Notes: generated by a model not told the origin, from the letters alone. A stretch of DNA of 64,000 nt from an uncultured Verrucomicrobiae bacterium (GCA_963765205.1 CAVXVB010000004.1:192001-256000); one strand, 5' to 3'. Positions 515-63,375 are shown, numbered from the stretch's first letter. Made by a program: numbers and translations.

Positions 515-629
515 AGGGACATAGGGACAAAGGCACAAAGGGACAAAGGAAAAAGCGACCGGCAGGTGACTATTCGCTTGTGCGTGTCTGCCTAACTCTG
601 TCCCTTTGTGCCTTTGTCCCTCTGCCCCT
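515..629. repeat. inverted pair of tandem 8-mer arms (AGGGACAA/AAGGCACA type)
   Basis: 515-549 agggacatagggacaaaggcacaaagggacaaagg versus 596-629 ctctgtccctttgtgcctttgtccctctgcccct. Confidence 0.85.
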
Positions 630-1509
630 CGCTCCACTCCAAGCCCGCCTTCACTGCGTCTGCCATCGTGATAAACCGCCGCAACGGTGCAATTTCATGC
701 ACGCGCACCATGGCGCAGCCTTGTTGGATGCCCCAGACCAGCGTCGCGGCCGTGCCTTCAAGGCGGTCGTGCGCGGGCGCGCCGCCGAGGACTTTGCCGA
801 GCGTGGATTTGCGCGACGTGCCGAGCAGCACCGGATACCCGAGTGCCACCATCCAGTGGAGATTTTTCAAGACTTCCAGATTTTGCGCGGCGTCCTTGGC
901 AAAGCCAAAACCCGGATCGAGCCAGATTTGGCGGCTCGGCACGCCGGCAGCTTGCGCGAGCGCGAGGCTGAATTGCAAATCGCCCAGCACGCCGGCCCAA
1001 AAGTCCGTGTAATTCCGATCCGGCCGGTTGTGCATCAAAATTATCGGGCAACCCAATTGGGCCACGGTTTCCGCCATCGGCGAGCGCGGCGGGGGCGTGG
1101 CGCGGCGTTGCGCAGCGCTGCAGCCGTGCGCGCCGCCCCAGACGTCGTTGACGATGTCGGCCCCGGCGCGAATGGCCGCCTCGGCGACTTCGGCTTTGTA
1201 AGTGTCAATCGAGATGGGCGCGTCTGGGAATTTTTTCCGCAGCGCGGCGAGCGCCGGGAGTACGCGGGCGAGTTCAGTTTTGGTGTCAACCGGCGCGGCG
1301 TCGGGCCGGGTGGACTCCGCGCCGAGGTCGAGGACGTCCGCGCCTTCGGCGAGCAGGGCGCGCGCGTGTTCGACGAGGGCCGCGGTTGTGGTAAATTGGC
1401 CGCCGTCGGAAAAGGAATCGGGCGTGACATTGAGGACGCCCATGACGAGCGTGTGCCCGCCCGGCGCGGGCAGCGGGCGGCCATGGGGGCTGGTCCAGGA
1501 GGGGAGCAC
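592..1509 (-). CDS. folP: dihydropteroate synthase
   Basis: MGVLNVTPDSFSDGG, GAESTRP, SIDTYK, DPGFGF, GTSRKS, VRVHE motifs. Confidence 0.96.
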   Translation of the reverse strand: MLPSWTSPHGRPLPAPGGHTLVMGVLNVTPDSFSDGGQFTTTAALVEHARALLAEGADVLDLGAESTRPDAAPVDTKTELARVLPALAALRKKFPDAPISIDTYKAEVAEAAIRAGADIVNDVWGGAHGCSAAQRRATPPPRSPMAETVAQLGCPIILMHNRPDRNYTDFWAGVLGDLQFSLALAQAAGVPSRQIWLDPGFGFAKDAAQNLEVLKNLHWMVALGYPVLLGTSRKSTLGKVLGGAPAHDRLEGTAATLVWGIQQGCAMVRVHEIAPLRRFITMADAVKAGLEWSEGQRDKGTKGQS

Positions 1510-1515
1510 AAAGAA

Positions 1516-1670
1516 AGTGTGGAGTGTGGAGTGTGGAGTGTGGAATGTGAAGTGCGGAGTGAACAGCGTGAATTTCCAATGTGGAAAATCGTCTCCGAAC
1601 TACCTGCGCTCCTTCGCGCACCGGGGCCAGACGGCCTTCTCTGTCGCTCCACACTTCACGTTCCACACTT
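1516..1670. repeat. inverted pair of tandem 7-mer arms (AGTGTGG)
   Basis: 1516-1561 (agtgtgg)n versus 1647-1670 ctccacacttcacgttccacactt. Confidence 0.85.
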
Positions 1671-1675
1671 TGTTT

Positions 1676-2374
1676 TCACTCCGCCGGCTTGTAACGGTAG
1701 CCGACGCCGTGGACGGTAAGGAGGACGCCTTCGTCGGGATCAATTTTTTTGCGGAGTTGCGCGATGTGCTGGTCGAGTGTGCGGGTGGTGCCGAGGTAAT
1801 CAATGCCCCAGGCCTGGTCGAGGAGATATTGGCGCGAGAGGGCTTCGTTGGGTTTGTGGAGGAAAAGCTCGATGAGTTTGAGTTCGCGGGGCGTGAGCGT
1901 GGCCACCTGGCCACCGATGTCGGCCTCAAATTGTTTCGTGCGGATGAGGGCGCGGCCAAACTTGAATTCGTCCGGCAGGGGCGCGGGCGCGCCTTCACCG
2001 CCGACGTGCGCGCGGCGGAGCGCGGCGGCCACGCGCGCAAGGAGCTCGCGCACGCCAAAGGGTTTGGTGACGTAGTCGTCCGCGCCCAATTCGAGGCCGA
2101 CCACCTTGTCAATTTCCTGGCTCTTGGCGGTGAGGATGAGCACGGGGATCTGCGGGTCGCGCTTGCGGATTTCGCGGCACACATCGTAGCCGCTCATCTC
2201 CGGCATCATCAGGTCGAGCAGCACGAGGTCGTATTTGTTTTGCTTGAAGAGTTTGAGGCCCTCGGTGCCGTTTTGGGCGTCGGTGACTTCGTAGCCCTCG
2301 CTTTCGAGAATGTCCACGACGCCGCGGCGGATGTTGGCGTCGTCCTCGACGACGAGCAGGTGGCGGTTCTTCAT
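1676..2374 (-). CDS. OmpR/PhoB-family response regulator (no adjacent kinase)
   Basis: VVEDD, LLDLMMP, LTAK, GADDYVTKPF, winged-helix TRTLDQHIAQLRKK...VHGVGY. Confidence 0.93.
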   Translation of the reverse strand: MKNRHLLVVEDDANIRRGVVDILESEGYEVTDAQNGTEGLKLFKQNKYDLVLLDLMMPEMSGYDVCREIRKRDPQIPVLILTAKSQEIDKVVGLELGADDYVTKPFGVRELLARVAAALRRAHVGGEGAPAPLPDEFKFGRALIRTKQFEADIGGQVATLTPRELKLIELFLHKPNEALSRQYLLDQAWGIDYLGTTRTLDQHIAQLRKKIDPDEGVLLTVHGVGYRYKPAE

Positions 2375-7280: not shown

Positions 7281-7421
7281 TTTCGGAATTCGGATTGCTG
7301 AATGCTCCAACCAAATTGACGCTGAAGCACGATTCTTGAATATCCAGCAATCAGCATTCAGCAATCAGAAATTTTCCGCCCTCGCTCCGCTTGCGCGCTC
7401 CGCACTTCGAATTCCGCATTT
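7281..7421. repeat. nested inverted 7-mer arms (CGGAATT and CAGCAAT/CAGCATT types)
   Basis: cggaattcggattgctgaatgct ... cagcaatcagcattcagcaatcag ... tccgcacttcgaattccgca. Confidence 0.7.
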
Positions 7422-12645: not shown

Positions 12646-12797
12646 GGAAGGAAAGATTTTTGCAAGTAGCGCGGCATTGTCTTCACAAGCGCGCCGACTT
12701 GGCAAGCAAAACGACGCAAAAACTTCTCCACAATTTTACACCGCCGATTGTGAATATGTGAATAACTTTTTTCGATGAAGCAGGCCGCAGAAGAATT

Positions 12798-12869
12798 AAC
12801 CACGGATTACATGGATGGCACGGATGGGCAGATCGGAAAATAATCCGTGCTATCCTCGCCATCCGTGGT
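12798..12869. repeat. inverted pair of 9-mer arms (CCACGGAT type)
   Basis: accacggattacatggatggcacggat versus atccgtgctatcctcgccatccgtggt; similar pair at about 54616-54680. Confidence 0.7.
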
Positions 12870-12888
12870 CAAAAATAAATCCTCTTCG

Positions 12889-13350: not shown

Positions 13351-13480
13351 GGTCAGAAAAAATTAAGAATTATGAATTAAGAAGTGAAGGGCCAACTGCC
13401 GGAGGTGACGATGCGGGTTTATTCACTTTCAATGCAGACGCGACCAAAGGAGGGCGGTCCGGCGATGGATTCAATCCGGG

Positions 13481-17865: not shown

Positions 17866-17875
17866 GGGGTGAATC

Positions 17876-17992
17876 CTGATTGCGGATTTCTGAATGCTGA
17901 ATGAAGAACCCAATTGGCTGAATGCAAAATTTAGCCATCAGCTTTCGATGTTTAGGATTCAGAACTCAGAATTCAGCATTCAGAAATCAGCC
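17876..17992. repeat. inverted 7-mer arms (CTGAATG/CATTCAG)
   Basis: atttctgaatgctgaatg versus attcagaactcagaattcagcattcagaaatcag; related pair at 16543-16626. Confidence 0.75.
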
Positions 17993-19114: not shown

Positions 19115-19283
19115 GGGAGGGGAATTAAGAAATATGAGTTAAGAATTAAGAAGTAAAGCCGAGGGCAAAGCAGGCGCAAATTCGAGTTTTGAGTTTCGAG
19201 TTGGGGGTAAAGAATCTGAAATTTTAAATCTGAAATTTCAGATTTCGGAAAATGCGGGGGTAAAACATCGGGAATGCAACGAG

Positions 19284-25584: not shown

Positions 25585-25971
25585 TCAGTTTTGCTTGGCG
25601 GGGGATTTGAGTTTCGAAATAAGGCTGGACAGCATCCTTTCAATTTCTCGGGCCGCATAGCCAAATTCATCAAATTGAGTTGGCTCCAAGTATCCCAAGT
25701 TGCGGACGATTTCCAGTTGGGTTTGCAATTCGAACAGCGAACCGGCGGCAGTTTGCAAAAAGCGCACGTAGTCCGGCATAGAGTAACGGCCAAATCCCTC
25801 CGCGATATTTGACGGAATCGAGATCGCCGCCCGTCGAATTTGCGAGGTCAGCGTGTAAACTTCCTCTTTTGGAAAGGGCTGGGTCAAAGCATATGCCTAG
25901 GTCACCAAGGCCATCGCTTTTTGCCAGACCAGCAAATCCCGATAGGTGCGAATGGGCAATTTTGCATTCAT
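25585..25971 (-). pseudogene. four-helix-bundle protein (23S rRNA IVP/bAvd-like) with in-frame TAG
   Basis: MNAKLPIRTYRDLLVWQKAMALVT*AYALTQPFPKEEVYTLTSQIRRAAISIPSNIAEGFGR; TAG at 25897-25899. Confidence 0.88.
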
Positions 25972-26021: not shown

Positions 26022-26531
26022 TTAGGAAGCGAGTGCATCAAGCAGCAAATTCAATCCCATGCGTCCTTTGAAATTCTGCGCTTCTCCCATACGCATCCAA
26101 AAATACGGCCTTGTCGCCCCTTCCTCGCGGAGTTTTTTCATGCACCTTACGACCGTCTTGGATGGGATGAAAAACACTTCTGGTAGATTTTCGCTAGCAG
26201 GCCAATCATTGAGCCAAACAAAGGCATACCATAGATTCTTGTCGCCGCGCTCTGTTGCAGCCCAAGAGGTAAACCAAACATATACTTCCCCTTCGTCGTT
26301 CGTATTTCTTTTGGATTGGGTGCCGGTCTTTACTTGCACGCGAATAGCGTGACCACCTTTCAATTTTGCAACGAGTAAATCACAACCCGGCATTCCACCG
26401 CGAGGCATCGCAACTATAAGCCTGCGGCCCGAAAGGTAGGCCACAATGTAATGTTCGCCGCACACGCCGATAATTGAGGTGTTTTGCTTTGCAACGGCAA
26501 AGATAGTTGGCCCCACACTTGGCTGAGTCAA
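26022..26531 (-). CDS. PD-(D/E)xK-like nuclease-fold protein
   Basis: GEHYIVAYL...GCDLLV...IRVQVKT pattern; lower GC; start uncertain. Confidence 0.7.
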   Translation of the reverse strand: MTQPSVGPTIFAVAKQNTSIIGVCGEHYIVAYLSGRRLIVAMPRGGMPGCDLLVAKLKGGHAIRVQVKTGTQSKRNTNDEGEVYVWFTSWAATERGDKNLWYAFVWLNDWPASENLPEVFFIPSKTVVRCMKKLREEGATRPYFWMRMGEAQNFKGRMGLNLLLDALAS

Positions 26532-28200: not shown

Positions 28201-28291
28201 GGGAGAGAGAATATTTACCGCAAAAAAACGCAAACGCGACGCGAGGCCGCCGAGAGGTATTGCGTACTTTGCGTTTTTTGAGGTGAAGTAA

Positions 28292-29186: not shown

Positions 29187-29193
29187 GACAGGG

Positions 29194-29315
29194 AATTGAG
29201 AATTATGAATTAAGAATTATGAAGCGAAGACAAAATGATGAAAGTTTCCTGGCTGACGGCCAACCGTCCCAGTTTTTTCCTTCGTTTCGTAATTCGTAAT
29301 TCGTAATTTGAATTT
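29194..29315. repeat. inverted 7-mer arms (AATTAAG/AATTATG versus CGTAATT)
   Basis: aattgagaattatgaattaagaattatgaa versus ttcgtaattcgtaattcgtaatttgaatt. Confidence 0.8.
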
Positions 29316-29321
29316 TTGTGT

Positions 29322-30975: not shown

Positions 30976-30986
30976 GTGAAAGGGAA

Positions 30987-31010
30987 GTTTCGAGTTTCGA
31001 GTTTCGAGTT
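30987..31010. repeat. solo tandem 7-mer (AGTTTCG)3
   Basis: agtttcgagtttcgagtttcgagtt just upstream of the rpsD start. Confidence 0.75.
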
Positions 31011-31051
31011 TTTAGTTACTCGGATCGAAGCCCAGTGGCGGGAGAAAGGGT

Positions 31052-35144: not shown

Positions 35145-35152
35145 GGGAAAAT

Positions 35153-35265
35153 AAGATTTAAGATTTAGGATTTAAGATTTAGGAAGTGGCTGATGCAGAA
35201 AGTTTGCGGAATCCCTCAAGGTTTGGTGAAGGGGCTTATTTCATAAATCTTAAATCATAATTCCT
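35153..35265. repeat. inverted 7-mer arms (AGATTTA)
   Basis: aagatttaagatttaggatttaagatttagga versus tcataaatcttaaatcataattcct. Confidence 0.8.
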
Positions 35266-36022
35266 AATTCGTTTGCCGGGCGCGCATTTCGTGAATTTGG
35301 CTCGCCGAACGCAGTTTATACAGCCCGTCTAGCGTGGCGTTGACCATGGCCATCGGGTTGTTCGAGCCGAGCGACTTGGTGAGCACGTCCTTCACCCCGA
35401 CGGCTTCGAGGACGGCGCGGACGCCGCCGCCGGCGATGACACCGGTGCCGGGGCTGGCCGGGCGGAGCAAAACTTTGCCGCCATCGGAAAGGCCGAGGAC
35501 TTCGTGCGGAATGGTCGGACCGCGCAACTGGACGGAGCGAAAGCGCCGGTGGGCGCGTTCGGTGCCTTTCTTGATGGCGTCCGGCACTTCCTTGGCCTTG
35601 CCGAAGCCGAGGCCAATGCGGCCTTTGCCGTCCCCGGACACCACGAGCGCGGAAAAGCTGAAGCGGCGGCCGCCTTTGACGACTTTGGCGCAACGGTTGA
35701 TGTCCACCACTTTGTCAATATATTCGGAGGCAGGCTCGGATTCGCGCGGGCCGCGATCACGGCGTCGTCCGCCTTGACCACCACCGCCGCCGCCACCTTG
35801 GCCCCCGCGTCCGCCACCACCGCCGCCATGGCCGCCACGGCCACCACCACCTTGACCGCCACGGCCGCCGCGACCGCCGCCGTGACCACCACGGCCACCT
35901 TGGCCGCCACTCTGGCCGCCTTGCTCAGTTGCGGTAGCAGCGGGGGTGGAGGCAGCGGGGACGGTTGCTTCCGGCACAGGGGCGGCGGAAACGGCGGGAA
36001 TCTCGGGATTATCGGTGCTCAT
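35264..36022 (-). CDS. rpsE: 30S ribosomal protein S5 with Gly/Arg-rich N-terminal extension
   Basis: [33 protein letters not shown]. Confidence 0.96.
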
Positions 36023-37766: not shown

Positions 37767-37833
37767 GGAAAGGAATTATGAATTAAGAAGTGGAGAAGGC
37801 AGAATGAGAAATTCAGCAATCAGCATTCAGAAA

Positions 37834-38475
37834 TTAGGAATTAGGCGGGGACTGGGGCGGGGGCGGCGGGGGAGAGGTTTCAGCGACGGGGGCGGTAGGC
37901 GCGTTCGGATCGGGCTTTTTGACGGTGGGGGCCGAGGCGGTGCGGAAAGGCATGCCGAGGAGGCGGAGCAGTTCGCGACCGTCATCGTCGGTGCGGGCGG
38001 TGGTGACGATGGCGATGTCGAGGCCGATGTTTTTGCGGCCCGGGTCCACGGTGATTTCCGGGAAGATGGTGTGATCGGCGATGCCGAGGTTGTAGCTGCC
38101 GCGCCCGTCGAATTTCCGGCCCACGCCGCGGAAGTCGCGGATGTTGGGGAGGGTGACGGAGAGGAGGCGCAGGAGGAAGTCCCACATTTTTGGGCCGCGG
38201 AGGGTGACCATGACGGCGGAGGGCATGCCTTCGCGCACCTTGAAGTTGGCGACGGAGGCGCGGGCGCGGGTGATCACAGGCTTTTGGCCGGAGATGATCG
38301 TGATGTCCTTGACGACTTCCGTGACCCAGTTCTTGTCGGCCTCGGAATCAATGCGCGAGTTGAGTACGATCTTGTTGATCGTGGGCACCTGGTGCGGGTT
38401 TTTGAAGCCGCGGGCCTTGGCCATCTCGGGGACGACCTTTTCCAGGTAAAATTGTTTGAGGGTGGGGACGGTCAT
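37834..38475 (-). CDS. rplE: 50S ribosomal protein L5
   Basis: SGQKPVIT, FKVREG, IRDFRG, FDGRG, IFPEI. Confidence 0.97.
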   Translation of the reverse strand: MTVPTLKQFYLEKVVPEMAKARGFKNPHQVPTINKIVLNSRIDSEADKNWVTEVVKDITIISGQKPVITRARASVANFKVREGMPSAVMVTLRGPKMWDFLLRLLSVTLPNIRDFRGVGRKFDGRGSYNLGIADHTIFPEITVDPGRKNIGLDIAIVTTARTDDDGRELLRLLGMPFRTASAPTVKKPDPNAPTAPVAETSPPPPPPQSPPNS

Positions 38476-38634
38476 GGCGCGAAAGGGAATGCGGAGTGAT
38501 GAATGCGGAATTGTTCGACGGTTAAATTGTTGAATGGCTGGATTGTTTTGGCGGGTGACGAGAATCGCGGAGGTGAACCGAAAGGGATTGGTTTTTAGCA
38601 ATAGAGCAATTCAGCAATAGAGCAATAACGGGTG

Positions 38635-39886: not shown

Positions 39887-40005
39887 GGTGGAAGCGGAAT
39901 GAAAGATGGAAGATGGAAAAAAAGCGGCTAGTGGAAGATGAGTTTGGCGGGGAGGAAGTGGGTTTGATTCTACCTTCTACCTCCTTCCTTCTCTATTCTA
40001 GTTTG

Positions 40006-40443: not shown

Positions 40444-40583
40444 AAATTAAGAATTAAAAAGTAAGAATTAAGAAGGAGTCGGAGAAAAATGGCGGTCGTA
40501 GAGGCCAAAAACGGATGGCTGGGTGAAATGAGAGGAGGGTGCGTGGTTTTATTTTTTAATTTTTCCTTCTTAATTCTTAATTT
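40444..40583. repeat. inverted 7-mer arms (AATTAAG)
   Basis: aaaattaagaattaaaaagtaagaattaagaa versus ttttttaatttttccttcttaattcttaattt. Confidence 0.8.
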
Positions 40584-43238: not shown

Positions 43239-43293
43239 GGGAGGGAGGAAGGAAAGTGGGAAATTACGAATTACGAAACGCAGCGGAAGCAGC

Positions 43294-43584: not shown

Positions 43585-43730
43585 GAGCGCGAAATTTTTA
43601 AATGATGAATTACGAAACGAGAGAGCGGGGATGAGCAGTGGGTAATAGGGCGAAACAAGAGCAAAAGTGAAAATGGAAAACTGTGTGGCTTTGGTTTTGT
43701 AATTAGTAATTCGTAATTTGAATTTCCAAT

Positions 43731-44354
43731 TTAGCCATTGGCCCGCGCCAGAATCTTTTGGAAGCCTTGCTCGCTGATCAGCACGCATTCGTGGCTGACG
43801 AGGTCGAGGGCGTTGAGGGAGGCGGCGTCCACCATGGCCACCCGGGCGAGGTTGCGGGCGGCCAATTGCGCGTTCTTCTCGAAGGTTTCGTCCACCAAAA
43901 GAATTTTGCCGGCGGGGTGGATGCGGGTGAGGACCTGGTTGATAACTTTCGTCTTGGGCTGGGCGGGGGTAATTTTCTCGATGAGGTTGAGGCCACCTTC
44001 ACTGGCTTTGTCGAACAGGGCGCGCTGGAAGGCGAGCTGGCGGACTTTCTGGTTGATCGTGAGGGACCAGTCACGCGGACGTGGGCCGAACACGACGGCG
44101 CCTTTGACCCAGATGGGGCTGCGGCGCGAGCCGTGGCGGGCGTTGCCGGTGCCTTTTTGACGCCAGGGCTTCTTGCCCGTGCCTTTGACTTCGCCAAAAT
44201 TCTTGGTCTTGGACGTGCCTTGGCGGGCGTTCGCCTGGTAGGCGACGAGGGTTTCCTTGAGCGCCTGGAGGCCTTTCTTGCCTTCAAACTCGCGCAGGGC
44301 AAAGTCCTTTTCCTGGGCATTCGCGCCGTCGGGGCTGTAAACTTTGAGCTTCAT
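43731..44354 (-). CDS. rplD: 50S ribosomal protein L4
   Basis: RQGT, KKPWRQKGTGNARHGS, FGPRPR. Confidence 0.97.
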   Translation of the reverse strand: MKLKVYSPDGANAQEKDFALREFEGKKGLQALKETLVAYQANARQGTSKTKNFGEVKGTGKKPWRQKGTGNARHGSRRSPIWVKGAVVFGPRPRDWSLTINQKVRQLAFQRALFDKASEGGLNLIEKITPAQPKTKVINQVLTRIHPAGKILLVDETFEKNAQLAARNLARVAMVDAASLNALDLVSHECVLISEQGFQKILARANG

Positions 44355-47850: not shown

Positions 47851-47951
47851 GCCAAGACATGTCAAAATCATAGTTTGGAATCATGACACGGCCGAAAACC
47901 GCAATGTTTCGCACGGTTGACCTTTGTGCGAAATTGGATTGGCGTTGGCCG

Positions 47952-49301
47952 GTGTCCAAACCTGCCCGGATCGCCGAACTCGCCGCCGTGTTTCTCAAGC
48001 TCGGCTGCATTTCCTTTGGCGGGGCGATGGCGCACTTTGGTTATTTTCACGAGGAATTTGTGCGGCGGCGCAAGTGGCTCGACGAGGCGCATTACTCCGA
48101 CCTGGTCGCACTGTGCAATTTTCTGCCGGGGCCGGCCAGCAGCCAGACGGTGTTCGCCATCGGCATGGAGCGCGCGGGCCTGGCGGGGGCGCTGACGGCG
48201 TCCGTGGCTTTTTTGCTGCCGTCGGCGGCACTGATGATTTTGTTCGGCTACGGCTTCTCCGCGTTCAATGGTCCGGCGATGGTCGGGTGCCTGCACGGGT
48301 TGAAAATCGCGGCGGCGGCGGTCGTGGCCCAGGCGGTGTGGAACATGGCGCGGCGGCTGTGCCCGGATTTCCCGCGCGCGTTGCTGGCGCTCGCGGCGGC
48401 GGCGTTCGTGTTCGAGGTGTCCGGCGCGTATGGGCAAATCGGGGCAATCGTAGTCGGGCTGGCGGTGGGGTTCTTTTTCTTCAAAGTTTCGAGTTTCGGG
48501 TTTCGGGTTTCGAGTACAAGGCCCGACGAGGACGCCTCACTGAAAACCAATTCCACCATGTCTGACTTCCCCAACCCAACCGCCATGACGCTAAGTTCGT
48601 CTCCCGAAATGCAAAACCCGCCATTGAATCTTCCCAACTCGAAACTCGAAACTCGAAACTCGAAACTGAATATTCCCAACCCAAAACTAAAAAAATCCCA
48701 TTACTGCGCCGCCGCCGCGTTGGTCGTTTACGCGGTGTTGCTGTTCATTTTGCCGGTGCTGGCGGCGGCGTCGGGTGCGCGGAGCGCGAAAGTTTTTGCC
48801 GGCTTCTACCGGGTGGGCGCGCTGGTATTTGGCGGCGGCCAGGTCTTGATGCCGCTGTTGCGTGCGGAGGTGGTGCCGCCGGGCTGGATTGGCGACGGGC
48901 CGTTTCTCGCCGGGTATGGTGCGGTGCAGGCGATGCCCGGGCCGCTGTTTTCCTTTTCGGCATATGTGGGGACAGTGATCTTCGCGGGGCCGCGGGCGTG
49001 GCTCGGCGGGCTGCTGTGTCTGGCGGCGATTTATCTGGCCGCCTGGCTGGTCATCGGCGGCGCCCTGCCCTTCTGGCATACACTGCGCGGGCAAAGCTGG
49101 GCGCAAGGGGCGTTGCGCGGGGCGAACGCGGCGGTCGTCGGCATTTTGCTCGCGGCGCTCATCAACCCGATCGGCGTCGAGGCCATCGGAAACTGGCGGG
49201 ATCTGGCCGCCGCGCTCGCGGCATTGTTGCTGCTGGAAAAATTTCGCGCGCCGCCGTGGGCGATCGTGCTGGCCGCGGCAGCCTTGGGCGAGTTCATTTA
49301 A
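47952..49301 (+). CDS. chrA: chromate efflux transporter (long-chain CHR)
   Basis: FLKLGCISFGG, LPGPASSQ, GALVFGGG, QAMPGPLFSF; start could be 47883. Confidence 0.92.
   Translation: MSKPARIAELAAVFLKLGCISFGGAMAHFGYFHEEFVRRRKWLDEAHYSDLVALCNFLPGPASSQTVFAIGMERAGLAGALTASVAFLLPSAALMILFGYGFSAFNGPAMVGCLHGLKIAAAAVVAQAVWNMARRLCPDFPRALLALAAAAFVFEVSGAYGQIGAIVVGLAVGFFFFKVSSFGFRVSSTRPDEDASLKTNSTMSDFPNPTAMTLSSSPEMQNPPLNLPNSKLETRNSKLNIPNPKLKKSHYCAAAALVVYAVLLFILPVLAAASGARSAKVFAGFYRVGALVFGGGQVLMPLLRAEVVPPGWIGDGPFLAGYGAVQAMPGPLFSFSAYVGTVIFAGPRAWLGGLLCLAAIYLAAWLVIGGALPFWHTLRGQSWAQGALRGANAAVVGILLAALINPIGVEAIGNWRDLAAALAALLLLEKFRAPPWAIVLAAAALGEFI
48485..48667. repeat. inverted (AGTTTCG)n/(CGAAACT)n element inside chrA, in frame
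   Basis: Arms 48485-48515 and 48636-48667; 183 bp = 61 codons. Confidence 0.85.
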
Positions 49302-49350
49302 GCGGAGCGGCGACTGAGGCCACTGAGACGATTGAGGGGCAAAGACAGTA

Positions 49351-50205
49351 GAGGCTGTCCGAAAAGTCTGCTTTGGTCAAGTGATGGGCAGATGAGGTAG
49401 TGCGATCATGAGGCAGCCGAGCGTGGCAAAAGCGCAGAAGAGCGAAGCGTGTTTTTCCCAGCGGGTGAGCAAACGACGGTGATAGCCCAGCCAGGCGATG
49501 GTGCGTTCGACTCTCCAGCGGCGGCGGTAGCGGCGCCGCGGTCGTCCGTCCTGGGTGACGTTTTCGGGCCGGCGGTTTTTGCGGTGCGGGGCGATCATTT
49601 CGATGCCCAGTTCGGCGAGGGTTTCGTCCAGTTCATCCACGTCGTAAGCCTTGTCGCCGATGAGGCGTTGCGGCTGGGCCTCGGGCTGGCCCAAGTCGAG
49701 CGTTTGCTGCACCATGTCGTGTTCGGGAACGCCAGAGGCGTCCACCGACAGCGCCAGCGGAATGCCTTGCCCATCAACGACTAACTGCACCTTCGTGCCC
49801 TTGCCCTTGGGCGACAGCCCCACGGCGTCACCACCGCCCTTGGCCGCCGCAAAGGTGGCGTCCACGAAGCATTCTTCCACATCGATGCGCCCAACCTCAA
49901 TCAAGTGCCGGATAACTTGGGCGAACAGCATGCGGAAGGCCCGCGACTGGCTCCACTGTTGCAGGTAGTCATGCACGGTGGACTTGGGGGGAAAGCTGCG
50001 TGGCAGCAGCTTCCACGGCATGCCCGTGTGCAGCATGAACAGGATGGCTTCGAACACCTCCCGCTCGTTGGCCCGGGGCCGCCCAAACACGCTGCGCTTG
50101 GGCCGTTGCAACACAGGACTTATAATCTCCCATTGTTTGTCAGTTATAAACATCCCACTCCGAAAGCACCTTCCATGCCGACTGGCCTACTTTTCGGACA
50201 GCCTC
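49351..50205 (-). mobile_element. IS5-family insertion sequence, 855 bp
   Basis: 17-bp perfect terminal inverted repeats GAGGCTGTCCGAAAAGT (49351-49367, 50189-50205) flanked by TA on both sides. Confidence 0.93.
49377..50153 (-). CDS. IS5-family DDE transposase
   Basis: TDKQWEII, GRPR, TGMPWKLLP, VDAT, GDKAYD, YRRRWRVERTIAWL. Confidence 0.94.
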   Translation of the reverse strand: MFITDKQWEIISPVLQRPKRSVFGRPRANEREVFEAILFMLHTGMPWKLLPRSFPPKSTVHDYLQQWSQSRAFRMLFAQVIRHLIEVGRIDVEECFVDATFAAAKGGGDAVGLSPKGKGTKVQLVVDGQGIPLALSVDASGVPEHDMVQQTLDLGQPEAQPQRLIGDKAYDVDELDETLAELGIEMIAPHRKNRRPENVTQDGRPRRRYRRRWRVERTIAWLGYHRRLLTRWEKHASLFCAFATLGCLMIALPHLPIT

Positions 50206-50211
50206 TAAGGA

Positions 50212-50312
50212 AATTCGGCGTGCGGAGCGCGGAATGCGGAATTCAAAGTTTCCGATCTTATGTTCGACTTCCTTGCTCCTAATTCCGCACTCCGTATTCC
50301 GCGCTCCGCATT
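50212..50312. repeat. inverted 7-mer arms (TGCGGAA/TTCCGCA)
   Basis: cgtgcggagcgcggaatgcggaatt versus aattccgcactccgtattccgcgctccgca; related pair at about 58158-58262. Confidence 0.8.
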
Positions 50313-50380
50313 TCACTTCCCTCGCCTTCTGCTTTGCTTCTTGGGGCAAAACTCTATAGAGCAATGGTTGTTCGTCCCCC

Positions 50381-54527: not shown

Positions 54528-54695
54528 GGCGGGCAGCGTGTAGCGAACAAGGGCGGGTTGGCAATCTCAAAGGGCGCCCCACTTCGCCAAGGCTTCGTGG
54601 GGCAAGGAGTTTTTTACCACAGATGGCACGGATAAAGAAAAACAAAAATCCCTCCGTGGTATCCTTGTCATCCGTGGTAAATCTTTTCCAGCGGC

Positions 54696-55891: not shown

Positions 55892-56596
55892 ATGAAAAAC
55901 TCTCCCGCCAAAAAAATTCTCGTTGTGGATGACGAACACGACGTGACCGAATTGCTCGCGTATAAATTCAAACAGGAAAACTACGAAGTACAGGTCATCA
56001 ACGACCCATTGCTGATCATGGGCCGCGCACGCCAGTTCCAGCCGGATTTGGTCATCCTCGATATTATGATGCCGGAGTTGAACGGCCTCCAAGTGTGCCG
56101 GATGTTGCGCGCGGACGCGGTGATGAAAACCATTCCCATCATATTCCTAACAGCGCGCGGCGAGGCCGAAGACCGGGTCAAGGGCTTCGAGACCGGGGCG
56201 GACGATTACCTAGCCAAGCCGTTCGACACGCGCGAGCTGCTCCTGCGCGTGCAGGCGATTTTCAAGCGCGTGGCCCCGCCCAATGGCGCGGCGCCCGCTG
56301 AAAAAGTCTTCACCCTCGGCAAAATCGCGATTGATGTCGAGAAGCACCAGCTCACCGTGCGCGGGCAGGAGGTCGAGCTGACGGCGACGGAATTCCGCCT
56401 GCTGCGGCTGCTGGTCGAGCGCAAGGGGCGCGTGCAAAGCCGCGAACACCTGCTCGTCAACGTCTGGAACTACGAAGCCGACATCGAGACGCGGACCGTG
56501 GACACCCACATCCGCCGCTTGCGCGAGAAGCTCGGCACCGAGGCCGATTTAATCGAGACAGTGCGCGGCGTCGGCTACCGGGCGGTGGACGCCTAG
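55892..56596 (+). CDS. PhoB/PhoP-like response regulator
   Basis: VVDDE, LDIMMP, GADDY, LTATEFRLL, SREHLL, TRTVDTHIRRLREKLG. Confidence 0.93.
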   Translation: MKNSPAKKILVVDDEHDVTELLAYKFKQENYEVQVINDPLLIMGRARQFQPDLVILDIMMPELNGLQVCRMLRADAVMKTIPIIFLTARGEAEDRVKGFETGADDYLAKPFDTRELLLRVQAIFKRVAPPNGAAPAEKVFTLGKIAIDVEKHQLTVRGQEVELTATEFRLLRLLVERKGRVQSREHLLVNVWNYEADIETRTVDTHIRRLREKLGTEADLIETVRGVGYRAVDA

Positions 56597-56882
56597 AACA
56601 TCGAACGCCCAACATCCAACATTCAACATCGAAGGCCAAGCCGCACCAGCCGTTCCTCCATTTAATCCCCTCCGGGTTCAATTCCCGCAGCTTGCTGCGT
56701 TGGTGACATGGTTTGGGATTTGGGTTTGGGATTACAGGGATTGGATCAAAATGCCCCGGAACTTGCACCGGAGTTCTTTACTGACCAAGGCGCGGGACCA
56801 AAATTTGGCGGTCGCATTTTTTTGCAACCGGCCTGTCGTTTTTGATTGGATGTTGGGCGTTGGATGTTCGATGTTGGAAGTT
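56597..56882. repeat. inverted 7-mer arms (AACATCC/AACATCG) enclosing palindromes
   Basis: aacatcgaacgcccaacatccaacattcaacatcgaa versus ttggatgttgggcgttggatgttcgatgttggaagtt; related pairs at about 62145-62236 and 63285-63372. Confidence 0.82.
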
Positions 56883-56884
56883 GT

Positions 56885-58171
56885 ATGTGGCCCTTCCTTG
56901 CTCTCCTCTGTGCCCTCGCCGCGGCGCTCCTTGCGTGGCGGCTGGACCAGTTGCGCCGGCGCTTGCGCGATTTGGCCGACGCGGCGGAGTCGCGCACCCC
57001 GAATTTTTTGGGCGGCGAGGATTCGCTCACCCGGCGCTACCACCTGGCGCGCCTGCAGCGCGCGCTCGATGAACTGGCGGCGGCGCACGCCAAATTGACC
57101 CGGCAGGAGCGGGGTTACCTTGCGCAGATTGACGCGCTGTTCGGCAACCTCCAGGAGGCCGTGCTGCTGGTGGACGGGAGCCAGCGGGTCGCGCTCGCCA
57201 ATGCCGCGGCGGCGGAATTGCTTGGCGCGGACAAAGTCGCGCCCGGTTCGCGCCTCGAGGGCGCCGTGCGCGGTGCGGGGCTGATTGATTATATCTATCG
57301 CACCTTGCGCGGGGAGGGCGTCCCGCGCGCGGAATTTTTGCTGCCCCTGGGCCGGGACCAGGCGCGCTGGGTCGAGATTTCCGGCGCGCCGCTGGCCGCC
57401 GCCGCGCCCGACGGTCAGAAACTCTGCCTCTTTGTGTTGCACGACATCACCCGGCTCAAGGACCTCGAGAATGTGCGCAAGGAATTCGTCGCCAACGTTT
57501 CGCACGAATTGCGCACACCGCTGACGGTGATCAAGGGCTTTGCCGAGGCGCTGGTCGAGGACGACGAGCGCCTGACCCGCGAGGAACGCCTGCGCTTTCT
57601 CGAAAAAATCCGGCGGCAGACGCACCGCCTGGTGGCGCTGGTGAACGATTTGCTCGCGCTCTCGCGGCTCGAAAGCGAGCCGCACCGGCTCGACTTGCGC
57701 CCGCAATCGCTGCGCGCCTTACTCGAGGAAACGGCGGCGGAATTCGCCGAGCGCTTCCGCGAGGCGCGCGTGGCGCTGGAGCTGGATCTGCGCCACACCG
57801 ACGATGTGCTGCCGCTCGACGCGCTAAAAATTTCCCAGGTTTTCCAAAACCTGTTCGACAATTGCTTCCGCTACGCGAAGGGCTTCACCCGCGTGCGCGT
57901 GCTCACCCGGCAGGAGGACGACTGCGTGCGCGTCACGGTCGAGGACAACGGCTGCGGCATCCCGCCGCTGGATGTGCCGCATATATTCGAGCGCTTTTAC
58001 CGCGTGGACAAGGGGCGCTCGCGAGAGAGCGGTGGCACCGGGCTGGGCCTTTCGATTGTAAAGCACACCGTGCAACTGCACGGCGGCGAAGCCACCTGCG
58101 AGAGCGAGGAACGGACGGGCACGCGCATCCATTTCACCCTGCCCGTGCCGAGGAAGAGTGCGGAATTATGA
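56885..58171 (+). CDS. PhoR-like PAS sensor histidine kinase
   Basis: EFVANVSHELRTPLT, NLFDN, DNGCGI, FERFYRVDKGRSRESGGTGLGL. Confidence 0.93.
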   Translation: MWPFLALLCALAAALLAWRLDQLRRRLRDLADAAESRTPNFLGGEDSLTRRYHLARLQRALDELAAAHAKLTRQERGYLAQIDALFGNLQEAVLLVDGSQRVALANAAAAELLGADKVAPGSRLEGAVRGAGLIDYIYRTLRGEGVPRAEFLLPLGRDQARWVEISGAPLAAAAPDGQKLCLFVLHDITRLKDLENVRKEFVANVSHELRTPLTVIKGFAEALVEDDERLTREERLRFLEKIRRQTHRLVALVNDLLALSRLESEPHRLDLRPQSLRALLEETAAEFAERFREARVALELDLRHTDDVLPLDALKISQVFQNLFDNCFRYAKGFTRVRVLTRQEDDCVRVTVEDNGCGIPPLDVPHIFERFYRVDKGRSRESGGTGLGLSIVKHTVQLHGGEATCESEERTGTRIHFTLPVPRKSAEL

Positions 58172-58259
58172 GTGCGGAATGCGGAATTTTGCGCGTGCGC
58201 TCAAATCAAGCGAATTTCCGAATTGAAATCGAGGTGGCTTTTATTCCGCACTCCGCATT

Positions 58260-59462
58260 TCACTTCGCAGCGGCATCCGCCGGGCTAGTCGCCGGCGTTG
58301 CAGGTGGGTTCGCCACCTCCGGCGCGGTGAGCATGATCGTCTGCACTTTGCTGGTGTCGGGATCCGTTATCTCCACTTTGTAGGAGGACCAGACCCAGGT
58401 GGGCCGGGGAAGGGGCGGCTGGCTGTCGTCGGATAATATGCGCGCCCAGGGAGCGTCGCCCAAGAGTTGGCCGTCGCTGCCCACGACAAGGGCGCGAATG
58501 GCGCTGAGCGTGCCCGAGGCGGGTGGGTCGGCGGGGACGACGCTGGCGCGGTAGAGGAGAACAGTGGGCTGGGTGGATGGTGCGCCGAGCGGGGTGCTGT
58601 AAAACGAGATTAGCTCCGGCGGCTCCGTGCCTTGCGTTTGCAGGGGCAGGGGGTCGGCATGGGCAATGCTCACACTCCATTGGGTGCCGGTTTGGATGAG
58701 TTTGACAAAGGCGTCGAGATTGTTGCGACCGGGGTTATCTTCGTTGGCTGGAATGTTGGTGATATGATTGGTGCCTTTGGGCGCGGGATTGCTCGGGGTA
58801 GGTAGCAATGCCGGATTGGCCAGTGGACCGGTGGATTTGTATTTGGGCACATTGTCCTGGGCGACGGCGGCCTTGGGGTCGAGAAAGCTTTGCGCGCCTG
58901 CGGCGGGATGGTAGGGAGTGTCGCCGGGGCCGCCAGTAAGGAAAGCGTGATAGTCCGCGTTTAACTGGACGATGGGAATGGGCGGGGGGCCGGGTTTACC
59001 GGGGGCCGGGGGCGCGTATCCATACAGCATGTATATCACGCTGCCGACTTTCAAATCGGTTTTAGTGCGCACCACCTCAAGAACCACGGCGCGAACAGCG
59101 ACCGCTTTCGCGTCTGGCCCGATGCTGTCGTCCCCGGCTTTGGCTGCCTGGGGATTGACCGCCGTGATGCGGATGACCACTTCCTCGGGCGCAAGGGCTT
59201 GGAGCGCCTTGTAATCCGCGGGGGTGACCACCGGACTGGGAGCAGTGACGGTCGTGTTGGCGCGAAAGACGGGCGGTTGGAGGACGGCGGAGGGCGTCGG
59301 GGCGTCAGCCGCCAGCAATGCAGGAGCGGGAGCCGCATGGAGCAGGACTTCACCACGCGGGATTATTTCTGCGTCAGCCGCGCGCGCGCAGGGTGCTCCG
59401 GCGAGAACTGCCAGCAAGGCCGCGCACGCGAATACCCGGGGGGCAAAGGGGAGGCTGGACAT
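58260..59462 (-). CDS. hypothetical exported Pro-rich protein
   Basis: Signal peptide ending CARA; downstream of lpoB. Confidence 0.7.
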   Translation of the reverse strand: MSSLPFAPRVFACAALLAVLAGAPCARAADAEIIPRGEVLLHAAPAPALLAADAPTPSAVLQPPVFRANTTVTAPSPVVTPADYKALQALAPEEVVIRITAVNPQAAKAGDDSIGPDAKAVAVRAVVLEVVRTKTDLKVGSVIYMLYGYAPPAPGKPGPPPIPIVQLNADYHAFLTGGPGDTPYHPAAGAQSFLDPKAAVAQDNVPKYKSTGPLANPALLPTPSNPAPKGTNHITNIPANEDNPGRNNLDAFVKLIQTGTQWSVSIAHADPLPLQTQGTEPPELISFYSTPLGAPSTQPTVLLYRASVVPADPPASGTLSAIRALVVGSDGQLLGDAPWARILSDDSQPPLPRPTWVWSSYKVEITDPDTSKVQTIMLTAPEVANPPATPATSPADAAAK

Positions 59463-59539
59463 GGAGGGTGGAATTAAGTCACTTGCTTTTAGTTGTGCAT
59501 TAACTCCACATTTCACACTCCACGCTCCACACTTCAACT

Positions 59540-60082
59540 TTACAGCCCGATGGATGCACCCCGGCCTTGCTTGACGATGGGGGCCTTTTGCTCCCAGACC
59601 GAGGTCCCCGTGCTGACATCGGTGACCGCGAGGTCGAAGAAGTAGGCGCTTTGGCTGATGTCGGCGGCGGCGGTTTTATCCATCATGATTTTCCCGGCTA
59701 TGATGTAGTCGGGGGCCACGCCGGCCACCGCGTTGGAAATAATCTGAACCTTGTCGGTTTGCAGCAGCGGGATGCGCACGCCGCTCATGAGCATATCGGT
59801 GTCGAATTGCTGGTCCGTGTCGTTGATGACTGTGGAGATGAGGACGAGGCTGGGCGCGCCGGGCCGCTTTTCGTTGAGCTTGCCGCTGTTGAGGAGGTCC
59901 TGGACGAGGCTCTTGGCCGCCATGTTGAAGTCTTGATAATTGATCCGGTCGGCGTTCACGATCATGCGTTGGCCGTTGGGGTCAATATAGCTCGAGTTGT
60001 TCGGCGGGCTGCCGCAACCGGCGAGCAGGAGCAGCACGGGAAGAAGGATGAGGGATGAGGGATGAAGGATGAAGCGGTTCAT
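59540..60082 (-). CDS. lpoB: penicillin-binding protein activator LpoB-like lipoprotein
   Basis: Lipobox LLAGC, YIDP, NDTDQQFDT, DYIIAGKI, TGTSVW; context with ycfL. Confidence 0.78.
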   Translation of the reverse strand: MNRFILHPSSLILLPVLLLLAGCGSPPNNSSYIDPNGQRMIVNADRINYQDFNMAAKSLVQDLLNSGKLNEKRPGAPSLVLISTVINDTDQQFDTDMLMSGVRIPLLQTDKVQIISNAVAGVAPDYIIAGKIMMDKTAAADISQSAYFFDLAVTDVSTGTSVWEQKAPIVKQGRGASIGL

Positions 60083-60213
60083 GGGAAGTGGAAGAATAAA
60101 GGATGAAGGATGAAGTTGAGGGCAAAGAGCGAAGGGTTTGGAGAAGAAATTCTGTCAAAAAAAACTCCCTTTGCGCTCTTGGCGTCTTGGCGGTGAATGA
60201 TAGGGGGGAGCGC

Positions 60214-60678: not shown

Positions 60679-60682
60679 AAGT

Positions 60683-62107
60683 TCAGCGGAGGGAAAATGT
60701 TTGGATCGCCAAGCGGCCGTAAGGTGAGGTGGATTTGACGTAAACCATGGTAACCGGGCTGTCGGGCAGGTCAACCTCAAGTGATTCCGCCGTGTCGGCG
60801 CGGGCCAGGTAGAGTTTGTGGTCGGCGGGGGCGAGGAGGCGGCAGAATTGGATTTGTTTGGGCAGCGTCTCCCAAGTGCGGGTGTCGGCGCGGTTGGTGG
60901 CAGCTTGGTAGATCACGCCGGAGATTTCGGTGAGGGCGCCCAGCAGGCTGTTGTTCCCTGCGGCGGTTTCGAGGCCGTATTCGGCGGCCGCCTTGGCCCC
61001 GGCGGAGATCAGGGTTTTGACCACGATATCGGGCAAATCGTTCCGAAATTCCTGCGCGATGACGGAATCCATGTCGCAGAGCAAAGTCGTGCGCAAAGGC
61101 GCACTACCCGCCGACTGCACGACCAAGCCGGGGTTGAACTGCCCGTTGATCTTCAACACCGGGAAGGCGACGCCAATGTAGGGCACGTTGCGCGAGACCA
61201 CAAAGAGCGGGATGTCAATGCGCGCCTCCAGGCGGTCGGGGGCCTCGCCGGTTTCGTAAATGATAAAGGTGAGCGGCGGGAGCTGCCCGCCGTTGGTCAT
61301 TTGCGTGGCGAGGTCGCAGTCGGCGTCAATGAACGCGTTGTGGCCGATCATGGCCTGTACGCGCGCAAAGTCCACGCGCGCGCTTTCATTGTCGCTGGCG
61401 GATTGCGGCCGGGCCAGCAGGCAGACCGCGCGCAGGTAGGTCGCCATCGGGTTCGCGTAATTGGTGTAATACTTGAGGTTGTCGAGCGGGCCGTAGTTTT
61501 GTTGCATCTGCGCCTGGACGCGCGGGTCGGCTTGGGCGCGGGCGGCGTCGTAGCCGTCGCCGTTCGAGCCGGACTCGGCGGCGGCCTTCTGCGCCGCCGC
61601 GATGCGCGCGGCGTTGTTGCGCTGGGCGACTTGCTGGCGGTCGAGCGCCCGGTTCAGTTCGACGCGCGCCTCGTCAAACTTGCCCAATTGGAGATAATTG
61701 AGCGCCTGGTAAACACTCTCCATGATCCGGTCGTAGTCGCGCCCGCGGTAGGGCATGACCGTCGGGTTGACGAGCAGCGACTCCGTCTCGCGCGAGATCG
61801 AAATCTCCGGCTGCGTGTCCCAGTAATCGAACAACCGGTCGGCGGCGCTGAAGGAGTTCATGCTCCCCGCGATGTCGCCGGCGGCGCGCGCGGTGGCCCC
61901 GGCCTCGAGGTCCCAGAGCACGGCGTCGGTGCCGGAGCTTTTCTGGGCGGCGTGCGCGGCGATTTGCGCCGCCTGCGGATACGCCCCCGCCGCCCAGTTG
62001 GCACGCAGACTCTGCGTCTCATCCGTGTAGGACGCGCACCCGGCCAGCAGCGCAATGGCCGCCAGCAAACCCAACCGGCTGAACAATAATGAGGAGCGAA
62101 ATTTCAT
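60683..62107 (-). CDS. COG3014-like lipoprotein
   Basis: Lipobox LLAGC, PYRGRDYD, ARVELNRA, ADTRTWETLP. Confidence 0.82.
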   Translation of the reverse strand: MKFRSSLLFSRLGLLAAIALLAGCASYTDETQSLRANWAAGAYPQAAQIAAHAAQKSSGTDAVLWDLEAGATARAAGDIAGSMNSFSAADRLFDYWDTQPEISISRETESLLVNPTVMPYRGRDYDRIMESVYQALNYLQLGKFDEARVELNRALDRQQVAQRNNAARIAAAQKAAAESGSNGDGYDAARAQADPRVQAQMQQNYGPLDNLKYYTNYANPMATYLRAVCLLARPQSASDNESARVDFARVQAMIGHNAFIDADCDLATQMTNGGQLPPLTFIIYETGEAPDRLEARIDIPLFVVSRNVPYIGVAFPVLKINGQFNPGLVVQSAGSAPLRTTLLCDMDSVIAQEFRNDLPDIVVKTLISAGAKAAAEYGLETAAGNNSLLGALTEISGVIYQAATNRADTRTWETLPKQIQFCRLLAPADHKLYLARADTAESLEVDLPDSPVTMVYVKSTSPYGRLAIQTFSLR

Positions 62108-62350
62108 AAGCCGACCATCAACATCCAATCCCGCAACGGCGGGAAACGCCCAACATTCAACATCGAATGAAGAAACCGAAATGACCGTCGGCGTCTTAAT
62201 TGGATGTTGGAAGTTCGATGTTGGGCGTTGGATGTTGTCATAGCGGTGTCTGGCTTTACTTACAAGCCGAAGCCTAGGCTGGTTTTCACGACCGCCAATC
62301 GGGTCGCGGGTTCCCTGCTTTTTTCGCTCCCACCACCATCGCCCGGTAGG

Positions 62351-63215
62351 TCATCCTTGGATGAAAAGGCCGCCAGCCATAAGGCCCAAGTCACGTCGGC
62401 CATAGAACAGGTTAGGGTATTTTTCGACCAACTCGTTAATGGCGGGGTCCTTTTTCATCGCGGCACGCACGGCGTCGTCGAGCGCTTGGAAGGCATCGCG
62501 GACTTTTTGCATGGCGGCTTGGGCGTCTTTGTCCTCCAGCGCGTCTTGATGGATATTATCCAGCACAAACATGGCGCGCATATCTTGCGCCTGTGCCTTG
62601 ATTCTCGGGTCATCACTCCTATCGAGCGCATCCAAATACTTTTAGTTGTTCGGCTTGGGCCTCGGCTCGCGAAAGGCTGGGGCCGGGAGTGCCGTTCATT
62701 CTGGTGACAACGAGGTGATCGCCGAGGCCGAACGGTTCGGGGTTTGGGTCGGGCCACAACAAGTCGCGACTGTTTTTGTCGGATTCAAGACTCCAGGTGG
62801 TGCCGTGCAGCACCTGGCTGACTTGGTATTGGCTCAGACGGTCTTTATACGCCGGATTATTGATCGCGGGGTTGCTGAACATCAGCGTGCGGACGAGGTC
62901 ATCCGCCGCTCCGAAACGCTCGTCGTAAGTTCTGGTGGCAATAACGACGTCCCGGTCCTTTTCCGCCGCGTCCCGTGCGGCCAGCAGCAGATTCTGTTCA
63001 TCGGACGTCGGCCGGGGCTGGTCGCCCAGCCATGGATTACTATCCCAAGAAGAATTCCGGCCTTGGACTGGGGCGCCCGCCGGAGCGGTGCTCACCGGCG
63101 CGGCTGGTGCCTGAGCGGGAGAAGTCGTCTGCCCGCGCGCGCTGGCCAAAGTGAGCAAAACTACGGCCACGAAAAGATGCCGCAGGGATTGGGTAAAGAC
63201 GGGAAGGGTTTTCAT
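62351..63215 (-). pseudogene. hypothetical exported protein apparently split by a +1 frameshift
   Basis: Signal-peptide ORF 62619-63215 joins ORF 62351-62635 (EQLKYLDALDRSDD) if one A is removed from the run at 62640-62643. Confidence 0.55.
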
Positions 63216-63375
63216 AATGGCGGGGTGCGTAGTGGGTTATAAACAATAGACGCTTCGGCAGAACAATTATTAGAGATTCTTTACCATCCATCTACATCGA
63301 ATAAGGATACCTACGGCATCCAATCGGCTTCTTAATTGGATGTTCGGTGTTGGGCGTTCGATGTTGGATGTTGTT

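Follow-up and report, generated by a model that had tools for sequence, protein, structure and literature searches.

Paired Tandem-Repeat Arms at Gene Junctions of a Verrucomicrobiae Genome as Probable Ends of a Selfish Gene Cassette

The Locus and Its Repeat Elements

The 64,000-nucleotide stretch analysed here (the window) covers positions 192001-256000 of contig C4 in a 4.0 Mb, 92% complete genome, G000, of an uncultured Verrucomicrobiae bacterium (GCA_963765205.1). It carries mostly minus-strand housekeeping genes, including a ribosomal-protein operon at 28.6-45 kb. Its gene junctions are occupied by arms of imperfect tandem 7-, 8- or 9-mers, many of which face an inverted partner; upstream arms begin at a stop codon and downstream arms finish near a start codon. 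A first-pass annotation of the window had proposed that they are emptied remnants of a mobile cassette or, alternatively, mRNA stems serving as processing signals. Arms of the same families enclose genes of the PF05635 four-helix-bundle family and a GxxExxY nuclease-family gene elsewhere in the genome, and they are probably the ends of a selfish gene cassette. For comparison, genomes G001, G002, G003, G004, G006 and G008 are relatives or congeners of G000, and L095 represents a sister lineage. Genes were called with a custom script (77-85% coding), and the junction classes inherit that error. The elements of the window are as follows.

514..630 (514-549 and 596-630), paired arms of the 8-mer AGGGACAA family, folP to folB
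1516..1682 (1516-1561 and 1647-1682), AGTGTGG paired arms, response regulator to folP
7282..7372 (7282-7306 and 7345-7372), AATGCTG paired arms, downstream of lexA
12796..12872, 9-mer CCACGGAT paired arms, of the family that flanks GxxExxY genes
13358..13383, minus strand, lone downstream-type AATTAAG arm immediately before a start codon
16543..16626, GCTG-type heptamer hairpin at a convergent junction, 74% complementary
17870..17990, AATGCTG/CAGCATT paired arms
19122..19249, minus strand, three stacked downstream-type arms, drawn from different families, ahead of a single start codon
25534..26652, minus strand, filled cassette between guaA and a STAS gene, with arms 26620-26652 (upstream) and 25534-25560 (downstream)
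25585..25971, minus strand, four-helix-bundle gene (PF05635/TIGR02436) with one in-frame TAG
26022..26531, minus strand, second cargo open reading frame (ORF) of 169 amino acids with a weak PD-(D/E)XK endonuclease match
28201..28291, 9-mer ACGCAAAG-type hairpin upstream of guaA, the pair read by eye
29193..29316, AATTAAG/AATTACG paired arms, rpoA to rplQ
30986..31017, minus strand, lone downstream-type AGTTTCG arm before rpsD; another family stands here in relatives
35149..35270, AGATTTA paired arms, rpsE to rplO; the L095 junction is empty (5 nt)
37770..37845, mismatched arms (AATGCTG upstream, AATTAAG downstream), rplE to rpsN; L095 and G003 share the mismatch
38476..38634, 8-mer ATTGCTCT-type element, rplX to rplE
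39899..39992, mismatched arms, rplP to rpmC; the L095 junction is empty (16 nt)
40444..40583, AATTAAG paired arms, rpsC to rplP
43262..43277, minus strand, lone downstream-type AATTACG arm before rplB
43600..43732, decayed AATTACG pair, rplD to rplW, fold lost
48485..48667, AGTTTCG paired arms, in frame in the linker of chrA (chromate transporter, ORF 47883-49301, plus strand)
49309..49345, plus strand, upstream-type arm directly after the chrA stop codon, followed by an IS5-family element
50210..50314, TGCGGAA paired arms
54615..54680, 9-mer CCACGGAT paired arms upstream of clpP
56596..56888, AACATCC paired arms between a response regulator and a histidine kinase; the loop contains an extra arm (56712-56742)
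58158..58262, TGCGGAA paired arms at a convergent junction
59503..59536, lone ACTCCAC arm
60039..60115, two GGATGAA arms in direct orientation
62140..62237, AACATCC paired arms, the upstream one weak
63280..63373, AACATCC pair after folK, one arm degenerate

Re-inspection found the arms where the first-pass annotation had placed them, and its estimate of about 30 junctions agrees with a census of 32 sites, which together hold 45 typed arms (a few are weak). The partner arm of each of its 15 named pairs was shuffled 300 times: 12 pairs scored better than every shuffle and 62145/62200 tied, while 43607/43698 and 63285/63336 did not exceed the shuffles. The placement at gene junctions is correct for most arms but not for all, as 48485/48636 is in frame inside chrA and arm 596-630 occupies the last codons of folP (ORF 592-1509). 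Similarly, the mirrored pairs are real, but many sites hold single or mismatched arms. Seven elements of the window were folded on both strands, with z-scores of -2.9 to -10.4, the element at 514..630 reaching -10.2 and -10.4, one per strand. The degenerate element at 63280-63375 still folds (z -4.35), whereas 43600-43735 does not (z +0.68). An Rfam scan of the window gave no match.

Pairing, Polarity and Families across the Genome

Intergenic arms of period 7 number 647 in G000, compared with 48-73 for periods 4, 5, 10, 11 and 13. When pairing was counted genome-wide at a score of at least 14, an inverted partner was found for 357 of the 714 intergenic 7/8/9-mer arms (246/500, 30/62 and 81/152 for periods 7, 8 and 9), against 41 direct, 12 reversed and 45 complement partners in the controls (33/6/2, 8/2/2 and 38/5/2 by period, respectively). 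Among arms of other periods only 2/111 have an inverted partner. A looser threshold yielded 297 real pairs vs. 32-96 in controls, and approximately 270-300 paired elements are called depending on the threshold. The pairing proposed from the window alone holds in the genome as a whole.

The polarity of the units, read from outside inward, is fixed: 231 of 236 elements follow it in a leave-one-out test. The first-pass annotation had regarded the architecture as shared and the sequence as not; this needs correcting, as sequence is common to the members of a family: units recur at dozens of loci, in one polarity. The dominant units contain no runs of three G on reading of the sequence and so appear unable to form G-quadruplexes. 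At C9:1139400-1139500, C7:134172, C7:267752-267836 and C8:307126-307182 the arms have grown to long perfect arrays of at least a dozen units, which indicates ongoing slippage.

Cargo Genes between the Arms

The genome holds seven PF05635 four-helix-bundle genes and one GxxExxY nuclease-family gene. Six of the former, and the latter, lie directly between paired arms, and these arms belong to the same families that are seen empty in the window. The seventh PF05635 gene is that of the two-gene cassette of the window at 25534-26652, overlooked by the first-pass annotation, whose arms pair with a score of 23 vs. a maximum of 20 in 300 shuffles. Its product matches PDB 2GSC, a pentameric ring of five chains, with an E value of 9e-22. 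The 169-amino-acid ORF next to it matches PF11645 with an E value of 0.0022, which is below the curated cut-off.

In G000 and ten relatives, 45/54 PF05635 genes are flanked by inverted arms (controls: 1 direct, 0 reversed, 14 complement), and all 13 GxxExxY genes have inverted 9-mer-type flanks at a score of at least 17, compared with 2 in the direct control. Across phyla, inverted flanks were found at 62/77 PF05635 loci (direct 11, complement 4, reversed 2). PF05635 is also present in Bacteroides thetaiotaomicron. One locus was left out of the relatives' set and 3/80 out of the cross-phylum set because of short flanks. The paired cross-phylum loci include 45 of period 7 and 15 of period 8, and the period changes 7 times vs. 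21.1 times in shuffles on a quick tree of 100 proteins built on just 105 columns, with 52 forks left open. One 8-mer clade spans genomes of Verrucomicrobiota kin, Bacteroidota, KSB1, Ignavibacteriota, Nitrospirota and Planctomycetota. Arm sequences match in 1-6% of the pairs below 60% protein identity and in 50-100% above it. Since arm type tracks protein clade, these sequence comparisons suggest that a PF05635 or GxxExxY gene and its arms likely travel together.

The cassettes are oriented with the surrounding genes. Paired PF05635 cassettes are co-oriented with the identified upstream neighbour in 44/44 cases and with the downstream one in 39/39, and GxxExxY cassettes are co-oriented on both sides in 10/13.

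The ribosomal-protein region of about 20 kb was surveyed in 30 genomes. Paired elements were detected in 4/9 genomes with at least five PF05635 genes, in 0/12 with one to three and in 0/9 with none (rho 0.54; some regions are short, and kin are not independent). From this pattern, cargo looks necessary at best, and not sufficient, for paired elements. A separate observation concerns C12:52926-53755, where weak AACATCG arms (score 13) enclose a small ORF that looks RelE/ParE-like by eye and may represent another kind of cargo.

Gene-Less Copies and Their Loops

Gene-less copies vastly outnumber filled ones. The spacers were described as unrelated to each other, and this is borne out: 170/182 loops have no match elsewhere and 12/182 have one. 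None of 169 loops resembles a cargo protein at 5 bits with the cargo profiles, a score reached 3 times and 1 time among five times as many shuffled loops. Loops were also compared with 68 cassettes by blastn and tblastx; among the matches listed, there was nothing but arm sequence or short words.

One gene-less 9-mer family is different. Its six dispersed copies, found in both orientations, have homologous loops (74-79% identity), extra terminal inverted repeats and, at 5/6 copies, matching 4-5 base A/T-rich flanks (by eye). The copy at C4:186095-186265 lies just before rnc, a junction that holds other families in G001 and G002 and is empty in G004 and G006. One unrelated match aside, the pattern of the family was not found in nine relatives. 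This family has spread as a unit.

Turnover and Placement at Junctions

Alignment of orthologous junctions, a check proposed with the first-pass annotation, reveals filled and empty sites between congeners. The rpsE-rplO junction carries four different units in G000, G001, G003 and G008 and is empty in others, being only 5 bases long in L095, and the rplP-rpmC junction measures 119 bases in G000 vs. 16 in L095. Cargo present in a relative is missing from G000 at 14 junctions, of which 11 carry arms in G000, against a baseline of 305/1629. By eye, two of the 14 keep arms of the same family, which corresponds to cargo loss in place, and nine have other arms. One PF05635 clade occupies atpG-atpD in G000 and G003 and atpA-atpG in G001. 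Six stacks (a full element followed by an older downstream arm), 21 mismatched pairs and cases of nesting were recorded as well.

Where room allows, an element is usually closer to the stop codon than to the start codon (41 vs. 9). Single arms are of the downstream type in 101 cases and of the upstream type in 46, at a median of 11 bases before the start, so decay favours keeping the downstream arm. With the operon of the window excluded, arms occur at 35% of the junctions in the top quintile of ribosomal-protein-like codon usage vs. 12% in the bottom quintile. In the ribosomal-protein operon at 28.6-45 kb and in its relatives, leaders are pyrimidine-rich with few Shine-Dalgarno-like motifs, and many resemble eroded downstream arms.

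Arms of a pair change together. In the chrA linker, G001, G002 and G003 carry related arms, each pair matched to itself, and G004 has none. Among orthologous cassettes, scored in fixed windows, arms pair better with their own partner than across species (24.0 vs. 18.2; own better in 23/31). Arm pairs also lie in frame within long predicted proteins at C7:75065-75157, C7:364952-365116 and C11:40290-40477, as in the case of chrA. Arms of the same family occur at neighbouring junctions in 10-13% of cases at 1-3 kb vs. a 7% background, a weak signal of local hopping. In two places, rplW (window 43262-43732) and an rplT-like gene (C5:353913-354603), pairable same-family arms come from neighbouring junctions and flank a host gene; this is probably coincidence (4/18 vs. 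the 7% background).

Other Features of the Window

Between rpsS and rplV, a minus-strand ORF of 140 amino acids (41630-42052) has no Pfam or NCBIfam match and is present in congeners. The rpsE frame has a long repetitive Gly/Arg-rich N-terminal part (35710-36022, minus strand; periods 9-54). An IS5-family element (DUF4096 + DDE_Tnp_1) at 49351-50205 has TA on both sides and lies between the post-chrA arm and the TGCGGAA hairpin. The genome contains six copies of this element at 99.6% identity or more and two at about 83%.

Interpretation and Alternatives

With some reserve, we favour a reading in which the arms bound a selfish gene cassette that lacks a promoter of its own, and in which gene-less copies of it spread, and are gained and lost, at junctions within strongly expressed operons. 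The arms would then serve as ends for recognition, either in DNA or with no preference for one strand, and not as a stem that the host selects in mRNA. The cargo protein may bind them and help to mobilise both filled and empty copies, and new copies would land just behind a stop codon or within an older copy. Slippage and fold-back copying between the arms, as known in general for quasi-palindromes, may keep them matched. The mobile cassette of the first-pass annotation survives in part. PF05635 and GxxExxY genes do lie within arms of the same families, and congeners differ in whether a site is filled or empty. Its "emptied remnants" cover only a part of the picture: none of the 169 loops is cargo-like, two of the 14 junctions retain same-family arms and nine have other arms, and one gene-less family spread as a unit.

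Several observations weigh against this reading. No general target-site duplication was detected, with 4-mer matches at 42/236 elements vs. 49.9 in shuffles. The GxxExxY gene and 2/7 PF05635 genes of G000 are broken, and many cassettes are old, having been inherited at one junction across genera. Most loops are unique, unlike those of a recently active miniature inverted-repeat transposable element (MITE), and loops do not resemble cargo proteins at the score used. The high-identity protein pairs in the arm-match comparison include kin, and the tree of arm periods is thin, with few columns and many open forks. Five of the nine genomes with at least five PF05635 genes have no paired element in the ribosomal-protein region at the threshold used. 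DNA runs from the same organism contain no polymorphic joints or indels at elements, although these low-depth contigs cannot show absence.

A more specific form of the same reading is put forward only tentatively. It would define a class of element without transposase or target duplication, in which a four-helix-bundle ring (or a GxxExxY nuclease) reads its own tandem-repeat arms, each subunit being matched to roughly one unit, and gives rise to new copies, with or without cargo, that settle behind stop codons and inside older copies. The five chains of 2GSC and the median stem length of 4.7 units form an analogy that is suggestive only. If this is true, a ring-protein element is the source of the long-unexplained excess of intergenic heptamers in bacteria, and decayed downstream arms built the pyrimidine-rich leaders of this lineage.

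A route through RNA seems rather unlikely. Here RNase III would cut the cassette from the transcript, an Avd-like ring would coat it, a borrowed reverse transcriptase would copy it and the copy would reinsert at transcribed junctions. There is precedent in the available text of PMC4990558, where intervening sequences (IVSs) of 23S rRNA with S23p ORFs are excised by RNase III; PF05635 resembles Avd of diversity-generating retroelements (DGRs) in what is accessible of PMC10053308, with a match to NF033474 at an E value of 0.00036. The gene for RNase III (rnc) is present in G000, strongly expressed operons are favoured, and stems of approximately 25-35 bp fold, with the z-scores given above. The co-orientation of cargo also agrees with this route, but it is equally expected if the cassette needs a host promoter. 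An mRNA stem under host selection should tolerate G·U over A·C on the transcribed strand, and there G·U pairs are not in excess over A·C: 43 vs. 76 in the cores of gene-less stems (p 0.003), 22 vs. 25 in PF05635 cassettes, 4 vs. 8 in GxxExxY cassettes and 26 vs. 30 across phyla. A terminator-like positive control gave the expected direction (6 vs. 1), but it is small (p 0.125). The sense strands of the junctions are C-rich and G-poor (C 0.318, G 0.238), and the A·C excess may just reflect this composition; therefore, antisense folding is not claimed. Relative to the replication strand, the mismatch asymmetry is 79 vs. 57 (p 0.07), with a skew that is too patchy for a firm reading. Furthermore, no PF00078 reverse transcriptase was found in G000, which is 92% complete, and the six-copy family occurs in both orientations. 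Splicing suggested by joints in the RNA run was rejected, as that run consists of contigs from relatives of about 90% identity with short junctions of their own.

A host device is improbable. The stem could hide the downstream start codon and open at the upstream stop, or mark a processing site, with no constraint on sequence other than that a stem or a pyrimidine-rich arm persists. The positions of the arms next to stop and start codons, the presence of some element at the same junctions across species and the preferential retention of downstream arms all agree with this, and a translational role has been proposed for TAACTGA repeats in the available part of PMC4679880. The same strand test speaks against it, as does folding: the sense strand folds better in 58/138 elements vs. 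190/519 arm-free controls. Sister lineages lack elements at the same ribosomal-protein junctions, and some elements lie inside proteins. Paired elements are not concentrated at co-directional junctions (171/2432, 7.0%) compared with convergent (43/560, 7.7%) and divergent ones (45/558, 8.1%), so the enrichment that the first-pass annotation had suggested looking for is missing. In these sequence tests its mRNA stems as processing signals find no support: G·U pairs are rarer than A·C on the mRNA strand, the sense strand has no folding advantage, and paired elements are no denser at co-directional junctions than at others. Retained downstream arms may nevertheless have been co-opted as leaders.

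We also give little chance to an origin without mobility, in which arrays arise by polymerase slippage and are mirrored by template switching, with small genes trapped between the arms. Slippage is a hypothesis cited in the accessible text of PMC4692102, and it suits the widely varying array lengths, the co-varying arms, the missing target duplication and the unique loops. It does not explain the fixed polarity, the tracking of cargo clade by arm type across phyla, the split between 9-mers with GxxExxY and 7-8-mers with PF05635, or the six homologous dispersed copies. Nor does it explain why paired elements are missing from the ribosomal-protein region in 9/9 genomes without PF05635, although they are also missing in 12/12 with one to three such genes.

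Ordinary MITEs moved by a DDE transposase are very improbable: although the six-copy family has its extra terminal repeats and matching flanks and an IS5-family element is active in the genome, the 236 elements give no duplication signal (k = 3 and 5: 153 and 11 vs. 146.5 and 11.8 in shuffles, the element ends being fuzzy), the IS5-family ends near chrA are unlike the arm ends, no IS1380 transposase (PF13701) was found in G000, and the cargo genes do not encode DDE transposases. Repetitive extragenic palindromes (REPs) and their paired forms (REPINs), associated with the Y1 transposase RAYT, are short palindromes tagged with GTAG/CGTC, and this tag was not seen in the arms by eye.

The elements join three orphans, namely intergenic heptamer repeats, PF05635 proteins far from rRNA and GxxExxY genes. 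The coupling of protein clade and arm type offers a direct handle for a binding test with cognate vs. non-cognate arms. The negative result on strand asymmetry points away from a host mRNA signal and toward the biology of the element itself, which reshapes the leaders of core operons and adds peptides to protein linkers.

Comparison with Known Systems

A literature search, mostly outside subscription papers and without supplements, found no paper joining such arms with PF05635 or GxxExxY cargo; in the available text of the bioRxiv myRT paper GxxExxY is mentioned only in passing. The first-pass annotation knew of no defined mechanism for the paired heptamer form. Inverted pairs of a single unit are already in print from Xanthomonas, where Rehm et al. 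(2015, PMC4692102) reported 70 and 75 inverted pairs of GGGAATC in two genomes, of unknown function, with the purine-rich strand being sense after stop codons and antisense before start codons and with variation between close species; xcc0516 is not mentioned in the accessible part of the paper. The elements described here resemble these repeats and the Nostoc heptamers of the same paper in forming intergenic heptamer arrays with inverted pairs and stop/start polarity. The excess of period 7 between genes and this polarity, which characterise the class of heptamer long simple sequence repeats, short tandemly repeated repetitive sequences and GGGAATC, are both found here. However, the Xanthomonas repeat is one unit per genome, is read as a G-quadruplex, has no reported cargo and is said to be unlinked to mobile elements, as far as the available text goes, whereas here there are many 7/8/9-mer families, mostly unable to form quadruplexes and tied to cargo.

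MacGregor (2015, PMC4679880) described TAACTGA repeats in Beggiatoaceae, Cyanobacteria and Bacteroidetes, which lie before start codons, also in ribosomal-protein operons, and have a patchy distribution without a known mechanism. These arrays resemble the single downstream arms found here. In the portion of that text available, nearly all are direct repeats with one inverted, and a four-helix-bundle link is absent.

Bacterial MITEs such as ERIC, Correia/NEMIS, RUP, YPAL and RPE are non-autonomous stem-loops of 100-200 bases (Delihas 2008, PMC2229807, accessible part). Like them, our elements are short and gene-less, have terminal inverted repeats and are intergenic or in frame in proteins, as in chrA. 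MITEs share sequence and terminal repeats and usually have a TA duplication, according to the same source, whereas here the loops are unique and the arms are tandem arrays. No general target duplication was found, although a 4-5 base one is possible in the six-copy family, and a matching transposase was found neither in the IS5-family element of the window nor in a search for PF13701. Homology over the full length of copies is limited to the six-copy family.

The DGR accessory protein Avd has a homologous four-helix-bundle fold (PMC10053308, accessible text); here, the genome search found no reverse transcriptase. ORF-bearing 23S IVSs with S23p/PF05635 are selfish and patchy, with the ORF often decaying (PMC4990558, available text). 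As in the filled forms described here, and in these only, a PF05635 ORF lies in the loop of a long stem. According to that text, RNase III excises such IVSs from the rRNA helices in which they reside; here the sites are protein-gene junctions and linkers with protein genes as flanks, tandem arrays form the arms, and the majority of copies lack cargo. In general, the element works like a hybrid of a MITE and an IVS and is, by the features tested, a member of neither.

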